Shown here: positions 13,958 through 23,516 of the stretch, piece after piece
Position numbering within the stretch: the first letter of the stretch is position 1
How the letters are laid out: every line of letters begins with the position of its first letter
NCBI GenBank assembly: GCA_965224085.1
Contig: CBDCYI010000011.1
Span: forward strand, 800,001-864,000
DNA length: 64,000 nucleotides
Reading direction: 5' to 3'
Origin: Candidatus Marinacidobacterales bacterium
Lineage (GTDB): Bacteria; Acidobacteriota; Vicinamibacteria; Marinacidobacterales; SMYC01
The notes under the pieces: generated by a model
What the model saw: only the letters and a program-made list of their open reading frames with translations
Told to the model about the DNA's origin: nothing
Database searches by the model: none
Translations under genes and position numbers: made by a program

Positions 13958-15458
13958 GTGGAATCCGTTCAGATCTCGACGATCGATCTGGCGATCGTTA
14001 TCGTCTACCTCGTCGCGGTAACCGCGCTCGGTCTTTGGGAGAGCCGCGGTATTCGGTCGAGCAAGGATTTCTTTCTCGCAGGGCGATCGCTCCCTTGGTG
14101 GGCGGCTGGCATGTCCATGGTTGTTTCCGATATCGGATATCGGCGCCAAAGACATGGTCGGCCTCGCGGGCGATGCCTATCGCTTCGGCATCGTCATGAT
14201 GAACTTCGATTTCGTCGGCTGCACGTTGCCGCTTCTCATCGCTGCGTTTCTCTTCATCCCGTTTTTCTGGACCTCCGAGGTCTACACGATTCCTCAATAT
14301 CTAGGGCTCCGCTACAACCCGGCGGTGCGCACGTTCTTCGCCGTTATTTGGTCCTTTTTCATGGTCGGCACCATCGCGACGATCCTCGTGAGCGCCGCGG
14401 CGATGTTCGAAGGCCTTCTCGGCTGGTCGTTTTGGCTTTCGGTAGGCGTGACTTCTGTGCTCGTAGGGCTCTACACGGTCTCGGGCGGGCTTCGCGCCGT
14501 CGTTTACACGGACGTCATCTCGTGTGTCGTGCTCATCGCGGGTGCGGCACTCATGTGCTTCATGGGACTTCGCAAGATCGGCGGCATTGGCAATCTCGTC
14601 GAGAGCGTCTCCACCCAAACGTGGACGACGGACCATTTCGATTTACTGCCTTCGGCTGCGCATCCCGACTATCCATGGCCCGCTGTCGTTGTTGGCCTTG
14701 GCTTCGTGCTCGGCCCGGCCTATTGGATTGGAAATCAAGCGATCGTCCAGCGCACGCTAGGGACGAAAAGCGCCCGAGATGCCCGCGCGTCCTATGTTCT
14801 TTGTGCCGTCATCAAGCTCGTCTTCCCGGTGTTGCTCGTTCTGCCCGGGCTCCTCGCCATTGGCCTCTTCGCTCGAGAGCTCGGTCCGCCGACAGCAGAC
14901 TGGGATGCCAATCAAGTGCTTCCGATGGTCGTCGCGCGGCTCGTCCCGAAAGGCGCCCTCGGCATTCTCATGGGAGCCTTCGTCGCCGGTGTGATGGCGA
15001 ATCTCGACTCGTATATCAACTCTGCGAGCACGCTGCTCGTGACCGATATCTATCGGCCCTTCGTCAACCCGCGCGCCTCGGATAAACAGTGCCTCGCTCT
15101 CGGCCGCTATCTCGTCATAGCACTTCTCGCGGGCGGGGTGCTCCTGAGCTACGAGGTCAAGATGCGCTTCGCGTCAGTCTTCGAAGCTTTCCAAACGTTC
15201 CTGTCGTTTTTTCAAGGAGCTCTCTTCGCACTTCTTTTGTTCGGCATGTTGACGCGGCGCGCCACACCGGCGGGGGGAGTGGCGGGAATGGTCGTCGGCG
15301 TCGCGGCGGCGGCGGGGCTGAACGCCTCAGGCGTCCTCTTTTTATGGACCGCTTGGTGGTCCTTCGTCGCGGCGTCGATCGCGATCCTCGTCGTGAGCAC
15401 GTTCACGGAGAAAAAGCCCGAAGAAGAGCTTCGCGGGCTCGTGTGCTGGAGGCGATGA
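13958..15458 (+). pseudogene. Sodium:solute symporter (SSS) frameshifted by a 7-bp duplication
   Basis: DFFLAGRSLPWW N-terminus in one frame and the remainder (YTVSGGLRAVVYTD, NQAIVQR) in another; GATATCG is repeated at 14129-14142. Confidence 0.88.
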
Positions 15459-17889: not shown

Positions 17890-18657
17890 ATGCGGCGCTC
17901 GAGCTCGGCGGTCGTCCTCTTCACGCTGACGCCGGAAGCGGAAGGGGTTAGAAAACCCCTCGGGCTCCACGGGTCGCAGCGTGCCACGGCTCTTTTTGCC
18001 ACACTGATCGAGCACGTCCAGACGGTGTGCACGGGTCTGAGCGGCGCCGATCTCCTCGTTGCCAGCGAGGCGCCGGTCGATCTCCCCGCGGGAGCTCAGT
18101 GGCTCCGTCAACGAGGGAGAGACTTCGGAGAATCGCTCAGGCTTGCGGTCGAGGAGGCGTTCGCGCGCGGCTACCGGCAGGTCGTCGTCATCGGGAACGA
18201 TGCGCCGGAGATCTGTCAGGATTACGTGAAAACCGCTCTCGACGAGCTCTCCCGAGGAGAACGGAAGGCCGCCGTCGGTCCGGCGACCGACGGAGGCTAC
18301 AACCTTATCGGCCTGACGGAGCCGTGCATCGCGGCCTTCGAAGCGATGCCCTGGGGCTCGGCCGAGGTTGCGCAACTGACCGTGGAGCGGCTTCGGGAAA
18401 GCGGCTTCGAAGTGGCGCATCTTCCGAAGCTCGAAGACATCGATAGCGCTCAGGAGCTCGTGCGCTTTTTGAACCGCATCTCCAGCCATGGACCGCGGGC
18501 CCGAGTAGCTCTGAAGAGGCTCGTTTCTCGGATTCGACAACTTTCCGCACCGGAACTTTGGACCATCGAAGAGGCTCATCACTCTCACAAGCGCCTCTCA
18601 CCCGCCGCCGCCCACCGGCTGCGCGCTCCGCCCCTGCCTTCCTGCACGACGCTCTAA
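17890..18657 (+). CDS. DUF2064 (TIGR04282-like) glycosyltransferase-like protein with a C-terminal RAPP motif
   Basis: QRGRDFGESL, VVVIGNDAP, VGPATDGGYNLIG, PW and DID motifs; tail ...HRLRAPPLPSCTTL. Confidence 0.85.
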   Translation: MRRSSSAVVLFTLTPEAEGVRKPLGLHGSQRATALFATLIEHVQTVCTGLSGADLLVASEAPVDLPAGAQWLRQRGRDFGESLRLAVEEAFARGYRQVVVIGNDAPEICQDYVKTALDELSRGERKAAVGPATDGGYNLIGLTEPCIAAFEAMPWGSAEVAQLTVERLRESGFEVAHLPKLEDIDSAQELVRFLNRISSHGPRARVALKRLVSRIRQLSAPELWTIEEAHHSHKRLSPAAAHRLRAPPLPSCTTL

Positions 18658-18701
18658 TCCTTCTGTTCGAGATCCGCGAAAGGCGGACCGGGAGTGTATC
18701 C

Positions 18702-19913
18702 ATGGAAAGGCCCATAGACTTGCAAAGACTAGCCATCATCGGCGCTGGCCCGATCGGAATCGAGGCCGCGCTCGCCGGGCGCGAGCTCGGATACGACGTT
18801 CGCGTCTATGAGCGTGGAACCGTCGGCGGGAACCTGCGGCGCTGGGGACGCGTGCGGCTCTTCTCTTCCTTCGAGCTCAATCACTCGGGGCGGGGTGCGC
18901 GTCTTCTCCAAGCCGAAGGTTTCAAGCTTCCCGAGGCCTCCGCGTATCTCACCGGGGAGGAGCACCTCGAGCGCTATCTCGAGCCTCTGTCGCGCACAGC
19001 CCCTCTGTCGGGATGCATCCACGAGAACACGCGCGTGGTCTCGGTCGGCCGCGAAGGCATCGGGAAGGGGGACCTCATCGGCGGTCCGCGGGAGCGGTAT
19101 CCGTTCCGGCTTCTCGTCGAAAGCGAGGCCGGCGACGAGGAGCTCGCGGAGGCAGACGTCCTTTTCGACTGTTCGGGAACGTACGGAAACCACAATTGGG
19201 TGGGAAACGGGAACGTACCGGCTCTCGGAGAGCGCGCGCTCGAGGAGCACATTGCCTACGAGCTCGAAGACGTCACCGGGACGGATCGCGCGAGATACGA
19301 GGCAAAGCGTGTTCTCCTCGTCGGCGACGGTCACTCGGCGAGCACGGCGCTCGACGGTTTGAGGGCCCTCCGCGAAACGACGGTCCACTGGGTCGTGCGA
19401 AAACAGAAGCCGCCCGCCGTCATCGCCGACGATCCGCTTCCCGAGCGCAAGAGGCTCTCCGAGCTCGCAGGTGAGCTCGCAGCGGGAGGCGACGCCCGGA
19501 TCCACTTCTATCCAGAGCACACCGTCGAGTCGGTACGGCGTGGGAGCTCCGCGTTCGAAGTCGAGCTTCGCTCGTCGCGGGCAACCAAGCTCGTGAGCGT
19601 GGACCGGATCCTTGCCCACGTCGGGTACCATCCGGACCGAAGCATCTATCGAGAGCTCCAAGTCCACGAGTGCTACGCCTCGCTGGCTCCGATGAAGCTT
19701 GCCGCAGCTCTTCTCGGCGAAAGCCCGGTCGACTGCTTGGCGCAGACGTCCAAAGGCGCCGAGGTTCTCAGAAATCCGGAACCGAATTTCTTCATTCTCG
19801 GGGCCAAGAGCTACGGCAAAGGCTCGAATTTCCTGATCCGCATCGGGCTCCGGCAGATCGCGGAAGTGTTCGGACTGCTGGCCGCCGAGAGGCGGAAGGA
19901 GCGAGCCTCGTGA
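18702..19913 (+). CDS. FAD/NAD(P)-dependent oxidoreductase (flavoprotein monooxygenase-like)
   Basis: IIGAGPIG, DCSGTY, VGDGHSA, GYHPD and LGAKSYGK motifs; SD GGGAG upstream of ATG 18702. Confidence 0.85.
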   Translation: MERPIDLQRLAIIGAGPIGIEAALAGRELGYDVRVYERGTVGGNLRRWGRVRLFSSFELNHSGRGARLLQAEGFKLPEASAYLTGEEHLERYLEPLSRTAPLSGCIHENTRVVSVGREGIGKGDLIGGPRERYPFRLLVESEAGDEELAEADVLFDCSGTYGNHNWVGNGNVPALGERALEEHIAYELEDVTGTDRARYEAKRVLLVGDGHSASTALDGLRALRETTVHWVVRKQKPPAVIADDPLPERKRLSELAGELAAGGDARIHFYPEHTVESVRRGSSAFEVELRSSRATKLVSVDRILAHVGYHPDRSIYRELQVHECYASLAPMKLAAALLGESPVDCLAQTSKGAEVLRNPEPNFFILGAKSYGKGSNFLIRIGLRQIAEVFGLLAAERRKERAS

Positions 19914-20800
19914 GCGCGAGCGCCCGGGTCGAGCTTCGCGCCCTCGACGATCTCTGGTTCCAAATCTCGGGAACGCTGTGCAATCTGACGTGCCACCACT
20001 GTTTCATCTCGTGTGGTCCGACGAACCATACGTTCGAGTTCCTCTCCCGTGAGGCCGTGCTCCTCGCACTCGAAGAGTCTCGGGAGCTCGGCGTCAAGGA
20101 GTATTACTTCACGGGGGGAGAGCCTTTCATACACCCGGACATGGTCGAGATTCTCGAGCGCACCCTGGAGCTCGGTCCGGCGACCGTGCTCACGAACGGG
20201 ACGTTGTTGAAACCGGAGGCCGCCGCCCGGCTGCAGCGGGCCGAGGCGCGATCGCCCTACAGCCTGGAGTTTCGGGTGAGCATCGACGGCTACTCGAGCG
20301 AGACGAACGATCCCATTCGCGGGGACGGGACGTTCGTGCGCGCGATGGCCGGTGTGCGGCTTCTTCTGCAGTACGGCTTCCTCCCGATCATCACCGTGGC
20401 GCAAACCTGGGACGACGATCGCAACGACGACGTCTTCGCGCGTTTCGTGAGCGTGCTGCGAGATGCAGGATACGAGCGCCCCCGAGTGAAGATCATTCCG
20501 ACCTTGCGGATCGGCGCCGAGGTCGAACGCAATCGCGGCTATCACCCGTCGGAGAAGGTGACCGTGGAGATGCTTGAGGACTTCGACGTCTCTCAGCTCA
20601 TCTGCACCCACTCGCGGATCGTGACCGAGAAGGGCGTCTACGTCTGCCCCATCCTCATCGACTCGCCGGAAGCCCGCATAGGAACGACCCTGTCCGAGTC
20701 GCTCGGCTCCTATCCGCTCGCGCATGGAGCCTGCTACACCTGCTATGTAGGCGGCGCCATTTGCAGCAATGTGAGCGCGGGAGGTGGCGATGCAGCCTGA
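19910..20800 (+). CDS. Radical SAM protein, ArsS-related
   Basis: GTLCNLTCHHCF (CxxxCxxC), FTGGEP, LTNG and a C-terminal Cys cluster (C...CP...CYTC...C); GTGA overlap with the upstream gene. Confidence 0.88.
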   Translation: MSASARVELRALDDLWFQISGTLCNLTCHHCFISCGPTNHTFEFLSREAVLLALEESRELGVKEYYFTGGEPFIHPDMVEILERTLELGPATVLTNGTLLKPEAAARLQRAEARSPYSLEFRVSIDGYSSETNDPIRGDGTFVRAMAGVRLLLQYGFLPIITVAQTWDDDRNDDVFARFVSVLRDAGYERPRVKIIPTLRIGAEVERNRGYHPSEKVTVEMLEDFDVSQLICTHSRIVTEKGVYVCPILIDSPEARIGTTLSESLGSYPLAHGACYTCYVGGAICSNVSAGGGDAA

Positions 20801-21584
20801 GCGCTTCGAGAGAATCGCCGCTCTCGGCGGCGTCTACAGCAACCATATCGCCCTCGAGGCCGCCATTGCCGACGCCCGCCGGCGCGACGTCGACGCCATC
20901 TTCTGTCTCGGGGATCTCGGCGCCTTCGGGCCACACCCCGACAAGACGTTTCCTTTGTTGCTCGAAGCGGGCGTACGGGTGATGCAGGGGAACTACGACA
21001 ACTCCATCGGGCGAGGACTCAACGACTGCCAGTGCGGGTACACCGACGCCCGCGACAACTTCTTCGCGAAGATTTCGTACGACTACACCTTCGACCGGAC
21101 TTCGGACCGATGGAAGTCGTGGCTGCGATCCCTCCCGGAGTCGATCCGCATCGAGCTCGGCGGCTACCGGGTGCTCATGAGCCACGGCTCGCCTCGAAAG
21201 ATGAACGAGTTCCTCTGGGAGTCCACGACCCCGACGCATTTTCTCGAGAAGATGGTGGAGTCGCATCACGCCGACGTGGTGCTGGCCACGCATACCGGTC
21301 TTCACTGGAAGCGCGAGCTTCCCGGCGACCGGCACTTCGTCAACGTCGGTGTCGTAGGGCGGCCTGCCAACGATGGACGGACCAACGTCTGGTACACGAT
21401 TCTCGACGCCAGCAACGGCTTCGACGCCGAGTTCGTTCCCGTGGACTACGACCACGAGAGCCTGGCGCTTGAGATGAAGCAGGAGGGTCTCCCGGTGGAG
21501 TTCATCGATACGATCCGGCACGGATGGTGGACCACCTGCCTCGAGATTCTCCCGGCGAAAGAGCGAAAGAAAGGAAGCTTCTGA
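20790..21584 (+). CDS. Calcineurin-like metallophosphoesterase with a CxCGY insert
   Basis: GGVYSN, CLGDL, GNYD, HGSP, THTG and NVG motifs. Confidence 0.88.
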   Translation: MQPERFERIAALGGVYSNHIALEAAIADARRRDVDAIFCLGDLGAFGPHPDKTFPLLLEAGVRVMQGNYDNSIGRGLNDCQCGYTDARDNFFAKISYDYTFDRTSDRWKSWLRSLPESIRIELGGYRVLMSHGSPRKMNEFLWESTTPTHFLEKMVESHHADVVLATHTGLHWKRELPGDRHFVNVGVVGRPANDGRTNVWYTILDASNGFDAEFVPVDYDHESLALEMKQEGLPVEFIDTIRHGWWTTCLEILPAKERKKGSF

Positions 21585-22750
21585 TGGCGACAACCGAGAT
21601 GAACCCTGAACGAGCCGTGAAGTCGCGTTACTCGCAGGCGGCATCGGCGCGTGAGCGAGAGCTCTGCTGTCCCGTGGACTACGACCTGCGATACCTGTCG
21701 GTCATTCCTGAAGAGATCCTCGAGCGGGACTACGGCTGCGGGGACCCTTCGAAGCACTTGCGCTCGGGAGAAACAGTTCTGGACCTCGGAAGCGGTGGCG
21801 GCAAGATTTGCTACATCGCGTCTCAGGTGGTGGGGCCGAAAGGCCGCGTCATCGGCGTCGACATGAACGACGACATGCTCGCGCTGGCGCGCAACTACCG
21901 TCAGAGCATCGGGGACGCGCTCGGCTTTCACAACGTCGAGCTCCGCAAAGGCAAGATTCAAGACCTCGCTCTCGATCAAGAAGGGCTCGAGGCCCATCTC
22001 GCGGCTTATCCGGTACGTACCCTCGAGGAGCTCGAGGCCGTGGGCCGCTGGAAAGAGAAGGAGCGGAAGGAGAACCCGATGATTCCGTCGGCCTCAATCG
22101 ACGTCGTGGTGAGCAACTGCGTGCTCAACCTCGTCGGCCCGCAGTCGAAATCCGAGCTCTTCCGCGAGATGCATCGTGTCCTGAAGAGGGGTGGACGCGT
22201 CGTCATCTCCGACATCGTGAGCGACGAAGACGTGCCCGAGCACTTGCAGGCCGACCCCGATCTCTGGAGCGGCTGCATTTCCGGCGCGTTTCGTGAAGAC
22301 CTGTTCTTGAAGGCATTCGAGGAAGCCGGGTTCTACGGCGTCGAGATCCTCTCGCGTGACGAAAGACCTTGGCAGAGCGTCGAGGGCATCGAGTTCCGCG
22401 CGCTCACGGTCCGAGCCTTCAAGGGGAAGGAAGGCCCGTGCCTCGAGCGCGATCAAGCCGTGATCTACAAAGGGCCATGGCGGAGCGTCACCGACGATGA
22501 TGGGCACGCGCTTTTTCGAGGCCAACGCATGGCGGTCTGCGACAAGACTTTCAACATTTACAAATCCGAGCCCTACGCAGCGGACATCGAAGCCGTAGAG
22601 CCTTACGAGGAGATTCCTCTTTCAGAAGCGGCGCCGTTCGATTGCCGGAAGGACGCGGTGCGCCATGCGCGGGAGACCAAGGGGCTCGACTACGATGCCA
22701 CCGAGACAACCGACGCGCCGTACTGCGGACCCGACGGTAACTGCTGCTGA
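21584..22750 (+). CDS. arsM: Arsenite methyltransferase-like SAM-dependent methyltransferase
   Basis: LCC, YGCGDP, LDLGSGGG, SNCVLNL and WSGCISGA carry the ArsM cysteine pattern; C-terminal extension ends in CC. Confidence 0.75.
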   Translation: MATTEMNPERAVKSRYSQAASARERELCCPVDYDLRYLSVIPEEILERDYGCGDPSKHLRSGETVLDLGSGGGKICYIASQVVGPKGRVIGVDMNDDMLALARNYRQSIGDALGFHNVELRKGKIQDLALDQEGLEAHLAAYPVRTLEELEAVGRWKEKERKENPMIPSASIDVVVSNCVLNLVGPQSKSELFREMHRVLKRGGRVVISDIVSDEDVPEHLQADPDLWSGCISGAFREDLFLKAFEEAGFYGVEILSRDERPWQSVEGIEFRALTVRAFKGKEGPCLERDQAVIYKGPWRSVTDDDGHALFRGQRMAVCDKTFNIYKSEPYAADIEAVEPYEEIPLSEAAPFDCRKDAVRHARETKGLDYDATETTDAPYCGPDGNCC

Positions 22751-22772: not shown

Positions 22773-23516
22773 CTAACTCTCGAGTACATCGTACCGATTC
22801 AAATCGTCGTCGCCTAGAAAACTCTCCACCCAACGAAGCGGCAGCTCGCGGCTAAGTGCCTCCGATTCCTCTTCGCTCGCCGCATGACAATAACGGTACG
22901 CGGCGGGGACGCCCCACGTCATGATGTGATCGCCAAGCTCGAACTCGCCGGGATCCAGCGTTTCCGATGACACCCCGAGGTAGTCCTCCCAGTGCACCAG
23001 CTTCTTGACAAAGCGCGGGAACTGGTCGAACCGCCAAGCCGTATACACCAACACGCCTCTGGAAGCCACACGCGCCGAAACCTCGGTGAGCAGTTTCAAA
23101 CGGCGTGCTCCCCCAGGCACGTGGTGCAGCACGCCAAACAAAACGACCAGATCGAACGTGGCCGACGCGAGCGCATCGGGCAGGAGCTCGGGCCCCGTGA
23201 TAAAGTCGTGCTTGTAAAGCTCGACGGCGTCGAGCTCCGCAAGCCGGGGACGGGCATGCTCCAGTGCAAGACCGCTCGCATCGACGCCGACATAAGTGAA
23301 CCGCATACCGCGCTGCGCCATAAAACGCGCAAAGCGACCGTTACCGCAGCCGAGATCGAGGACCCTGGGCTGAGCTTTCAGCCGAGACCCGATGCGGTCG
23401 AAGAGCACGTCCCACCCCCGCCACGCGCGCTCACGCGTTTGGTTGAACTCGTCCGCGCGCTCGGCGTAAAAACGCCGGTTGATCGCGTTGAGCTTCCGGA
23501 CCGTCTCCTCGTTCAT
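22773..23516 (-). CDS. Class I SAM-dependent methyltransferase
   Basis: VLDLGCGNGRF and VLHHVP motifs. Confidence 0.85.
   Translation of the reverse strand: MNEETVRKLNAINRRFYAERADEFNQTRERAWRGWDVLFDRIGSRLKAQPRVLDLGCGNGRFARFMAQRGMRFTYVGVDASGLALEHARPRLAELDAVELYKHDFITGPELLPDALASATFDLVVLFGVLHHVPGGARRLKLLTEVSARVASRGVLVYTAWRFDQFPRFVKKLVHWEDYLGVSSETLDPGEFELGDHIMTWGVPAAYRYCHAASEEESEALSRELPLRWVESFLGDDDLNRYDVLES

Follow-up and report, generated by a model that had tools for sequence, protein, structure and literature searches.

The window analysed here (64,000 nucleotides (nt) of a Candidatus Marinacidobacterales genome, contig CBDCYI010000011.1, positions 800,001 to 864,000) contains five co-oriented, intact open reading frames (ORFs) on the + strand at 17890-22750. 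On balance we favour, with little better than even confidence, the reading that they form a variant arsenosugar-type operon in which a radical S-adenosylmethionine (SAM) protein of an unnamed family, here called rSAM-X, replaces ArsS, together with a Car1-like reductase and a leader of enzyme fold that ends in the residues RAPP. An arsenic role of some kind is almost certain, and the four enzymes each link to arsenic independently. A preliminary description of the block, made from the sequence, had proposed an organoarsenical pathway with an ArsS-like radical SAM protein that is not ArsS; this proposal is supported, and the system is present in both Acidobacteriota and Planctomycetota. A literature search, with most subscription journals and bioRxiv supplements outside its scope, found no account of this gene set. 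The features of the operon are:

17890-18657, + strand: DUF2064 protein, 255 amino acids (aa), PF09837 at 89 bits
18622-18633, + strand: RAPP codons of the DUF2064 gene (residues 245-248), with the stop codon 7 codons further on
18658-18701, + strand: intergenic region of 44 nt, with a Shine-Dalgarno sequence, GGGAG, at 18690-18694
18702-19913, + strand: FAD/NAD(P)H flavoprotein, ArsV-like, 403 aa, homologous to an ars-operon flavin monooxygenase-like protein
19910-20800, + strand: radical SAM protein of the unnamed family rSAM-X, 296 aa, GTG start, CxxxCxxC
20790-21584, + strand: metallophosphoesterase-fold protein, candidate Car1-like reductase, 264 aa, with C80-x-C82 and C250
21584-22750, + strand: long-form As(III) SAM methyltransferase (ArsM/AS3MT type), 388 aa

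The last four genes overlap by 4, 11 and 1 nt, and a gap of 44 nt separates the DUF2064 gene from the flavoprotein gene. The co-orientation, intact ORFs and overlaps of the last four genes noted earlier are borne out by the ORF coordinates, and the extra cysteines named at that time are present and conserved across homologues of all four downstream enzymes.

Gene associations of rSAM-X

A GTDB search found 190 loci with rSAM-X, of which we kept the best 80, mostly from Planctomycetota and some cut by contig ends. Within 7 kb of rSAM-X in these 80 there is a flavoprotein gene in 71 and a phosphoesterase gene in 54, and the phosphoesterase is encoded elsewhere in 23 of the 26 remaining genomes, for a total of 77/80 rSAM-X genomes. 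Within the same distance DUF2064 occurs in only 21 of the 80 loci and ArsM in only 4. A long ArsM (E<=1e-100) is present elsewhere in 41 of 50 genomes tested, which were drawn from the 76 without ArsM at the rSAM-X locus, and one more has a split copy. Among the 33 Acidobacteriota rSAM-X loci fetched, 31 contain the phosphoesterase and 12 the flavoprotein; 8 of the 21 genomes without a flavoprotein at the locus encode it elsewhere. Because of the 77/80 co-occurrence and the 31/33 Acidobacteriota loci, the conserved core is rSAM-X with the phosphoesterase-fold candidate reductase, and ArsM is usually elsewhere in the genome. The association of genes with rSAM-X, for which a neighbourhood check had been suggested, is thus seen across Acidobacteriota and Planctomycetota and is more than chance. 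A fixed five-gene cassette, as the block had been described, is rejected on the DUF2064 and ArsM counts.

Longer homologues of rSAM-X are fusion proteins in 77 of 78 cases. The partner is an ArsM-type domain in 62 (6 of these calls are partial or weak matches), a flavoprotein in 13 and a phosphoesterase in 2.

Other genes recur near rSAM-X. A gene for a ThiO-like glycine oxidase (276 against a cut-off of 251; for example L079:4603-5724) is found in 25 of the 80 loci; its neighbours in the Pirellulales loci inspected are a canonical TIGR04282 gene on one side and the flavoprotein gene on the other. A fusion of AMP-binding, acyl carrier protein (ACP) and PlsC acyltransferase domains, ~890 aa in length, is encoded within 8 kb of rSAM-X in 19 of the 40 loci that we fetched from Acidobacteriota, and in most of these it is immediately upstream (for example L167:5223-7895 and L178:8873-11551); an arsenolipid link and inherited synteny are both possible explanations. 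There is a type III polyketide synthase (PKS) gene beside the cluster in L154, L157, L160 and L172, and three of these also have an ICMT-family methyltransferase.

rSAM-X as a predicted counterpart of ArsS

To our knowledge, the only bacterial formers of carbon-arsenic (C-As) bonds named in published accounts are ArsM-type methyltransferases, ArsS, ArsL and the bisenarsan route, and experimental evidence for arsenosugar synthesis covers no more than its first steps. ArsS (TIGR04167) of Synechocystis is reported to convert dimethylarsenite, DMAs(III), to 5'-deoxy-5'-dimethylarsinoyl-adenosine (DDMAA) (PMC13598754, PMC12159101). The rSAM-X system resembles the Synechocystis ArsM-ArsS system in combining ArsM with a cysteine-rich radical SAM protein of ~300 aa, in the similar spacing of five C-terminal cysteines, and in having TIGR04282, TIGR04283, TIGR04169-like and DUF547 companions. 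It differs in that a Car1-like protein takes the place of TIGR04168 as the fixed partner of rSAM-X, which often has an ArsV-like flavoprotein as well and nearly excludes ArsS.

We predict that rSAM-X is a C-As bond-forming enzyme standing in for ArsS. Its residues C232, C246, C275 and C278 are present in 110/110 homologues and C285 in 109/110, and a forced global alignment lines up the five C-terminal cysteines with those of ArsS. rSAM-X forms one clade (100/100) in a 37-row tree. Membership in ArsS itself is rejected: in the TIGR04167 search that had been proposed as a check, rSAM-X scores 51.6 bits against a cut-off of 300, and it has no match to DUF3641, which we take to be the name of the cysteine-rich C-terminal domain of ArsS. 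The best-scoring model is NF049973 (98.8 against a cut-off of 380). The earlier description of rSAM-X as a sister of ArsS is based on cysteine spacing and genomic context, and is weakened by low tree support and by C-terminal domains that do not align significantly.

Selenocysteine in rSAM-X was also considered and rejected; three TGA stops seen when 30 loci were re-searched fall at query positions 288-289 and are natural C-terminal ends. A further radical SAM group, "Y", is 28-38% identical to rSAM-X and adjoins ArsM in most loci (L184-L190, L244:6926-7873). In its other setting Y occurs with TIGR04282, DUF547, PhnDEC and a phosphoesterase that is degenerate in a similar way to that of the window.

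Co-occurrence with arsenosugar genes

We scored 401 genomes of the phylum, counting rSAM-X at >=43% identity and 14 weaker matches as Y. The sample includes 42 genomes with rSAM-X, 76 with ArsS, 137 with TIGR04283, which is annotated as an arsenosugar transferase, and 29 with a long ArsM. TIGR04283 is present in 36/42 rSAM-X genomes (35/41 without G024, an unpublished genome among the 42), in 14/14 Y genomes and in 56/76 ArsS genomes, and in only 36/274 genomes that have none of the three. rSAM-X and ArsS occur together in 3 genomes, with 14.7 expected among TIGR04283-positive genomes, and ArsS, X or Y is present in 27 of the 29 genomes with a long ArsM. These statistics treat related genomes as separate data, and Fisher values overstate the associations because kin genomes are not independent. 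All 29 planctomycete rSAM-X genomes contain TIGR04283 and one contains ArsS. Adhaeretor mobilis (L037), a cultured planctomycete that carries rSAM-X, has ArsS too. The co-occurrence pattern of ArsS, with ArsM and TIGR04282/TIGR04283, is therefore also that of rSAM-X.

The genome to which the window belongs (95% complete) has no ArsS match over the cut-off. It encodes a TIGR04283 protein (C11:772232-772882, 235.8 against a cut-off of 182) and a canonical TIGR04282 protein (C9:203788-204357, 179.4 against 134), both as stand-alone genes away from the operon and from one another. We did not find acr3 in this genome. A TIGR04169-like gene lies between the leader and the flavoprotein gene in L152, L155 and L159 (the L152 copy scores 118.8 against a cut-off of 120), and TIGR04168 was found in 0/5 rSAM-X genomes tested.

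A candidate arsenate reductase

Based on sequence similarity, the phosphoesterase-fold protein is a candidate Car1-like arsenate or organoarsenate reductase. Its model keeps the phosphoesterase fold (predicted local distance difference test, pLDDT, 93) and is of the SapH/PF1291 type. The ligands of canonical metallophosphoesterases are presumably DxH, GD, GNH, H and HxH, and the protein does not have this canonical binuclear set. One of the metal sites is gone: the first metal motif, DxH, is replaced by GGVY (GGxY in 81/81 members) and the last histidine of GHTH is lost (H-T/S-G in 81/81), whereas ars-operon homologues show the forms SDxH and GHTH. GNY is found in all 81 members, and D42, N68, H132 and H168 are kept. 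C80 is present in 80/81 members, and C82 and C250 in 81/81. C80 and C82 align with C74 and C76 of three ars-operon homologues, and the ars-type plasmid homologues that we opened are in ars operons in 5/5 cases. TIGR04168 was rejected as the family of this protein, with no match.

Car1 of Rufibacter tibetensis is described as an As(V) reductase of metallophosphoesterase fold in which Cys74 and Cys76 are essential (Shen et al. 2024, as cited in PMC12124457). The likeness of the window protein to Car1, as seen through the ars-operon homologues, includes the fold, the GNYD motif and the CxC at C74/C76. It differs from these Car1-type homologues in sequence (~30-33% identity), in the loss of DxH and the last histidine and in an extra invariant C250, and its partner is a radical SAM protein, whereas the partners of the Car1 type are efflux pumps. 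The preliminary description noted the lack of ArsC, which is true by name only, because the phosphoesterase-fold protein has the cysteines of the Car1 reductase. Some related reductases share an N-terminal extension of ~50-70 residues (L153:6995-7918, L154:8881-9903, L160:8859-9860).

Flavoprotein and methyltransferase

Neither the flavoprotein nor the phosphoesterase-fold protein is a stranger to arsenic biology; the nearest annotated plasmid homologues of both are in ars operons. The flavoprotein matches 153 plasmid records, with 31-34% identity over ~90% of the query among the 30 listed, and the opened records are in ars clusters in 4/4 cases. C324 is present in 73/75 homologues and C345 in 75/75, and C345 aligns with a conserved cysteine of the ars-cluster homologues. 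One of these homologues is encoded downstream of a MarR protein with C36, C37 and C157, the reported signature of MarR-ars. The target of MarR-ars regulation is ArsV, described as a flavin monooxygenase that oxidises methylarsenite, MAs(III), as well as Rox(III) and Sb(III) (bioRxiv 10.1101/2021.08.12.456183). The likeness to ArsV consists of 33-34% identity over ~390 aa to ars-operon flavoproteins, for which we use the family name based on context. The window flavoprotein differs from ArsV in having no cysteine-rich tail and an extra conserved C324.

Judged by its sequence, the methyltransferase belongs to a long ArsM subfamily that has no model of its own. It matches the solved algal ArsM (PDB 4kw7/4fr0) at E 4e-34 and has the SAM-binding motif. 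C52, C179 and C231 align with C72, C174 and C224 of the algal enzyme, residues that we take to be catalytic, and are conserved in 39/39, 39/39 and 38/38 orthologues; 12 cysteines are largely kept among 39 orthologues. The suggested search with ArsM models gave a mixed outcome, in that the three ArsM cysteines are kept and all named cut-offs are missed (NF040538, 345.7 against 500; NF008823, 194 against 263; NF038099, 133 against 400). With the ArsL-ArsM pathway of arsinothricin synthesis the operon shares a radical SAM protein and a long ArsM whose best model is NF040538. It differs from that pathway in that its ArsM is below the NF040538 cut-off and has no C-terminal RCCLKC motif, and in that no ArsL model is among the best 25 of 50 NCBIfam families for rSAM-X.

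A probable translation-arrest leader

The DUF2064 gene is probably a translation-arrest leader that switches the downstream genes. We base this on the distribution of RAPP or RGPP in the last 25 residues, which we scored in the best 150 of 13,578 DUF2064 representatives: the motif is present in 34 of 61 representatives without the N-terminal KTRL motif (a set that includes fragments) and in 0/89 of the KTRL type. The background is 3 in 4,959 crude ORFs of the window's genome. At the fetched loci, 11 of 34 DUF2064 ORFs have RAPP at their end and another 3 have RPPP or RAAP; these 14 all encode divergent-type proteins, and none of the other 20 has a RAPP-like end. RAPP is reported to be among the most avoided tetrapeptides in proteomes and to bring about ribosome arrest (PMC12992588). 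Stalling at the RAPP of this leader is likely, and ligand sensing by it has somewhat less than an even chance.

A regulatory role is more likely for this gene than that of a transferase in the pathway. It had been listed as a TIGR04282-type member of the pathway; the protein scores 121.7 bits against a cut-off of 134, has no KTRL motif and ends in RAPP, and the canonical TIGR04282 gene is elsewhere in the genome. An AlphaFold2 model (pLDDT 91.8) is folded to about residue 219, with pLDDT 54-57 over residues 221-240, and its closest fold is 3cgx, followed by the CofC/FbiD guanylyltransferases. The disordered linker before RAPP in the model is about one exit-tunnel length. The distance from DxD to the arginine of the motif has a median of 56.5 residues (interquartile range 54-58, range 46-63, n=30); alignment A2 was drawn from KTRL-less proteins, and its invariant PP is partly due to that selection.

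A comparable leader is CruR (DUF2946) of Bordetella pertussis, for which ligand binding by the nascent chain is reported to free the stall and let Rho terminate (PMC9426467). The likeness to CruR includes the leading position in the operon, a RAPP that almost reaches the stop codon, C-rich mRNA and Rho, and a constrained spacing from an upstream conserved motif is shared with CruR and other RAPP/RGPP arrest peptides. The DUF2064 leader differs in being a full folded domain of nucleotidyltransferase fold with no signal peptide evident in model or alignment and with looser spacing (46-63), whereas CruR is a small exported CxxC peptide. The genome encodes Rho, with the canonical copy on C5. In the minimum free energy fold, bases directly following the RAPP codons pair with the Shine-Dalgarno sequence and the start codon (z 0.15, not significant), and placing a stalled ribosome in the model reduces the opening energy of the ribosome-binding site (RBS) by 1.6 kcal/mol only.

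The source data of PMC12992588 include at least 44 DUF2064-RAPP proteins, of which 37 precede TonB/SusC receptors and 7 precede an arsenosugar peroxidase-like gene. The main text of that paper never names this family, and "DUF2064" does not occur in the main texts searched.

Two further observations concern the leader and Rho. In a close relative (flavoprotein 95% identical) the position immediately before the Shine-Dalgarno sequence contains, at L001:4900-5805, an apparently frameshifted sigma-70 gene, similar to the extracytoplasmic function (ECF) type, and a small putative anti-sigma gene in place of a DUF2064-RAPP leader, and the L001 ArsM is truncated. A second Rho-like gene in the window's genome (G000:C4:347837-348964) scores 460 bits, below the cut-off of 509.

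Proposed pathway and possible arsenic acquisition

Arsenate and methylarsenate mimic phosphate and phosphonate. Importers are encoded at 5 of 11 exact-RAPP loci, in four lineages, and none is encoded in the window operon. The L151 unit has a PiT transporter and an aquaporin, the L154 unit a PstS-type ATP-binding cassette (ABC) system, and the L158 unit porin O/P (a phosphate porin) with an ABC system of 2-aminoethylphosphonate (2-AEP) type; the same ABC cluster is in L174 and L182, from one genus. The L244 unit, of the Y family, has PhnDEC. The operon has no efflux pump or ArsR. Because related operons carry phosphate- or phosphonate-type importers, the evidence suggests that the operon serves arsenic acquisition rather than resistance. 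Import and reduction of methylated arsenic would also explain rSAM-X genomes without ArsM.

In the proposed pathway, arsenic in the pentavalent state, whether as arsenate, MAs(V) or DMAs(V), would enter through phosphate- or phosphonate-type carriers like those of the related operons. The Car1-like protein, based on homology, may reduce it to the trivalent form using C80 and C82, possibly with C250. ArsM, given its conserved cysteines, is predicted to methylate As(III) to DMAs(III). rSAM-X may then hold trivalent arsenic on its C-terminal cysteines and add a 5'-deoxyadenosyl radical, yielding DDMAA in the same way as ArsS; this step is suggested by genomic context. TIGR04282 and TIGR04283 proteins, going by their annotations, could convert DDMAA to arsenosugars or arsenolipid head groups. 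The flavoprotein may oxidise toxic trivalent methylarsenicals or a trivalent product, or may supply electrons for arsenic reduction. For regulation, the ribosome would stall at the RAPP of the pseudo-enzyme leader, and the DUF2064 domain, folding around a pathway metabolite while still nascent, might pull the ribosome free and switch the operon off; copper has this effect in the case of CruR. The preliminary description had suggested a different end product or a degradation route; we favour an ordinary arsenosugar-type product because TIGR04282 and TIGR04283 are in the genome and because rSAM-X and ArsS nearly exclude each other.

A broader proposal, that many uncultured Acidobacteriota and Planctomycetota acquire arsenic as a building block by importing and reducing As(V) species, with a second radical SAM family for C-As bonds and a dead-enzyme RAPP leader that exerts feedback control by binding an arsenosugar intermediate on the ribosome and relieving the stall, is tentative and on present evidence doubtful as a whole. 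If rSAM-X fills the role of ArsS, the sample of 401 would gain 39 genomes over the 76 that have ArsS, and many marine Planctomycetota would join the likely producers of organoarsenicals. A reductase in the enzyme set would explain the supply of trivalent substrate. With the leader one could test directly whether ribosome arrest can be sensed through a folded domain that binds a metabolite, and its ligand would identify a pathway intermediate. If the acquisition reading is true, the leader would be a full-domain arrest leader sensing a small molecule, and arsenosugars or arsenolipids would serve a physiological function and not simply arise as waste from detoxification.

Several observations weigh against the reading of the operon as a variant arsenosugar-type system. 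rSAM-X and ArsS share only 22% identity; the match of their profiles over the full length (99.3%) derives from the SAM barrel, and the C-terminal domains alone give <8% probability (hhalign). DUF3641 is matched by 0/75 rSAM-X members, and the five-cysteine pattern could, we assume, be a generic SPASM/twitch remnant. The node that joins X and Y to ArsS carries no star in the tree (89/74), and the ArsS branch is long. TIGR04283 is missing from 6/42 rSAM-X genomes, including a complete genome (G093) that has all five genes, and the roles of TIGR04282 and TIGR04283 are database labels only, for which the literature search gave no experimental paper. A long ArsM is in only 7 of the 42, and at 1e-25 an arsenite methyltransferase search drew a blank in 2/5 rSAM-X genomes tested. 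No flavoprotein turned up in 13/33 Acidobacteriota rSAM-X genomes. For the leader, RAPP is in 0/19 DUF2064 genes at planctomycete loci (one cut at its 3' end). Unmasking of the RBS exceeds 2 kcal/mol in only 4/11 leaders (median 0.1; for 2 of 13 leaders no start was found), with only 4/15 in the control, and a conserved RBS-unmasking hairpin is therefore not supported. A region with more C than G at 18580-18657 (C 53%, G 19%) largely reflects codon content (0.58 against 0.55 at 4-fold sites), and an independent rut signal is likewise not supported.

Alternative explanations

The same arsenic supply could feed a different C-As product, with rSAM-X transferring another group or acting on As(III) or MAs(III); an aminocarboxypropyl radical as in ArsL, for example, would lead to another organoarsenical or an arsenolipid. 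We regard this as unlikely. The low similarity of rSAM-X to ArsS and its dedicated partners would agree with it, as would an ArsM whose best model is the arsinothricin one (345.7 against 500), the acyl-CoA ligase-ACP-acyltransferase gene near 19/40 Acidobacteriota loci, the type III PKS near 4, and the retention of both X and ArsS in 3 genomes of the phylum. However, replacement is the better fit to the near-exclusion with ArsS and to a reliance on TIGR04283 that both families have in common, the radical SAM motif is the canonical CxxxCxxC with no ArsL model among the best 25 NCBIfam families, and the acyltransferase link may be synteny inherited in related families.

Salvage or breakdown, in which environmental methylarsenicals or arsenosugars are imported and recycled or degraded and the leader senses the substrate, is quite improbable. 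Importers and porins in related operons, rSAM-X genomes without ArsM, and the TonB/SusC receptors that follow 37 DUF2064-RAPP proteins, out of at least 44 tabulated with PMC12992588, all point towards it. Uptake and then reduction of DMAs(V) explains the genomes without ArsM equally well, the 62 ArsM fusions tie rSAM-X to methylation, and no lyase or hydrolase partner is conserved.

Resistance only, with reductase, methylase and oxidase detoxifying arsenic and the radical SAM protein as an accessory, is improbable. It would agree with the ars-operon homologues of three of the genes and with the failure to find acr3 in the 95% complete genome, so that another route may be needed. The operon is without an efflux pump or ArsR and related operons have importers instead; the invariant pair is the radical SAM protein and the reductase, and TIGR04283 co-occurs with it. 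Chemistry of selenium, antimony or phosphonate on recycled ars-type enzymes would fit a tRNA-Sec in the genome, phosphate- or phosphonate-type transporters and the Pirellulales ThiO-like oxidase between DUF2064 and the flavoprotein (25/80 loci), and is very improbable given the ordinary C-terminal TGA stops in the rSAM-X matches checked, the intact ArsM cysteines and the four independent links to arsenic.

Locus context and neighbouring genes

The GC content of the block resembles that of the window. The closest rSAM-X loci are in metagenome-assembled genomes of Candidatus Marinacidobacterales, and the block is matched over ~2.9 kb or more in 8/20 relatives. A promoter scan gave 0 promoter-like sites, and a terminator scan gave 5 terminator-like sites against 3.9 expected, none of them at the operon end on the + strand. 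Four metatranscriptome-labelled runs (shares 0.07-0.13) gave short scattered contigs only, none across the stretch. At 22773-23516 the window encodes a convergent, unrelated class I SAM methyltransferase that ends 22 nt after ArsM, and at 13958-15458 it encodes a sodium:solute symporter in two frames, with a break near 14121-14150 that is due to a frameshift or a sequence error.

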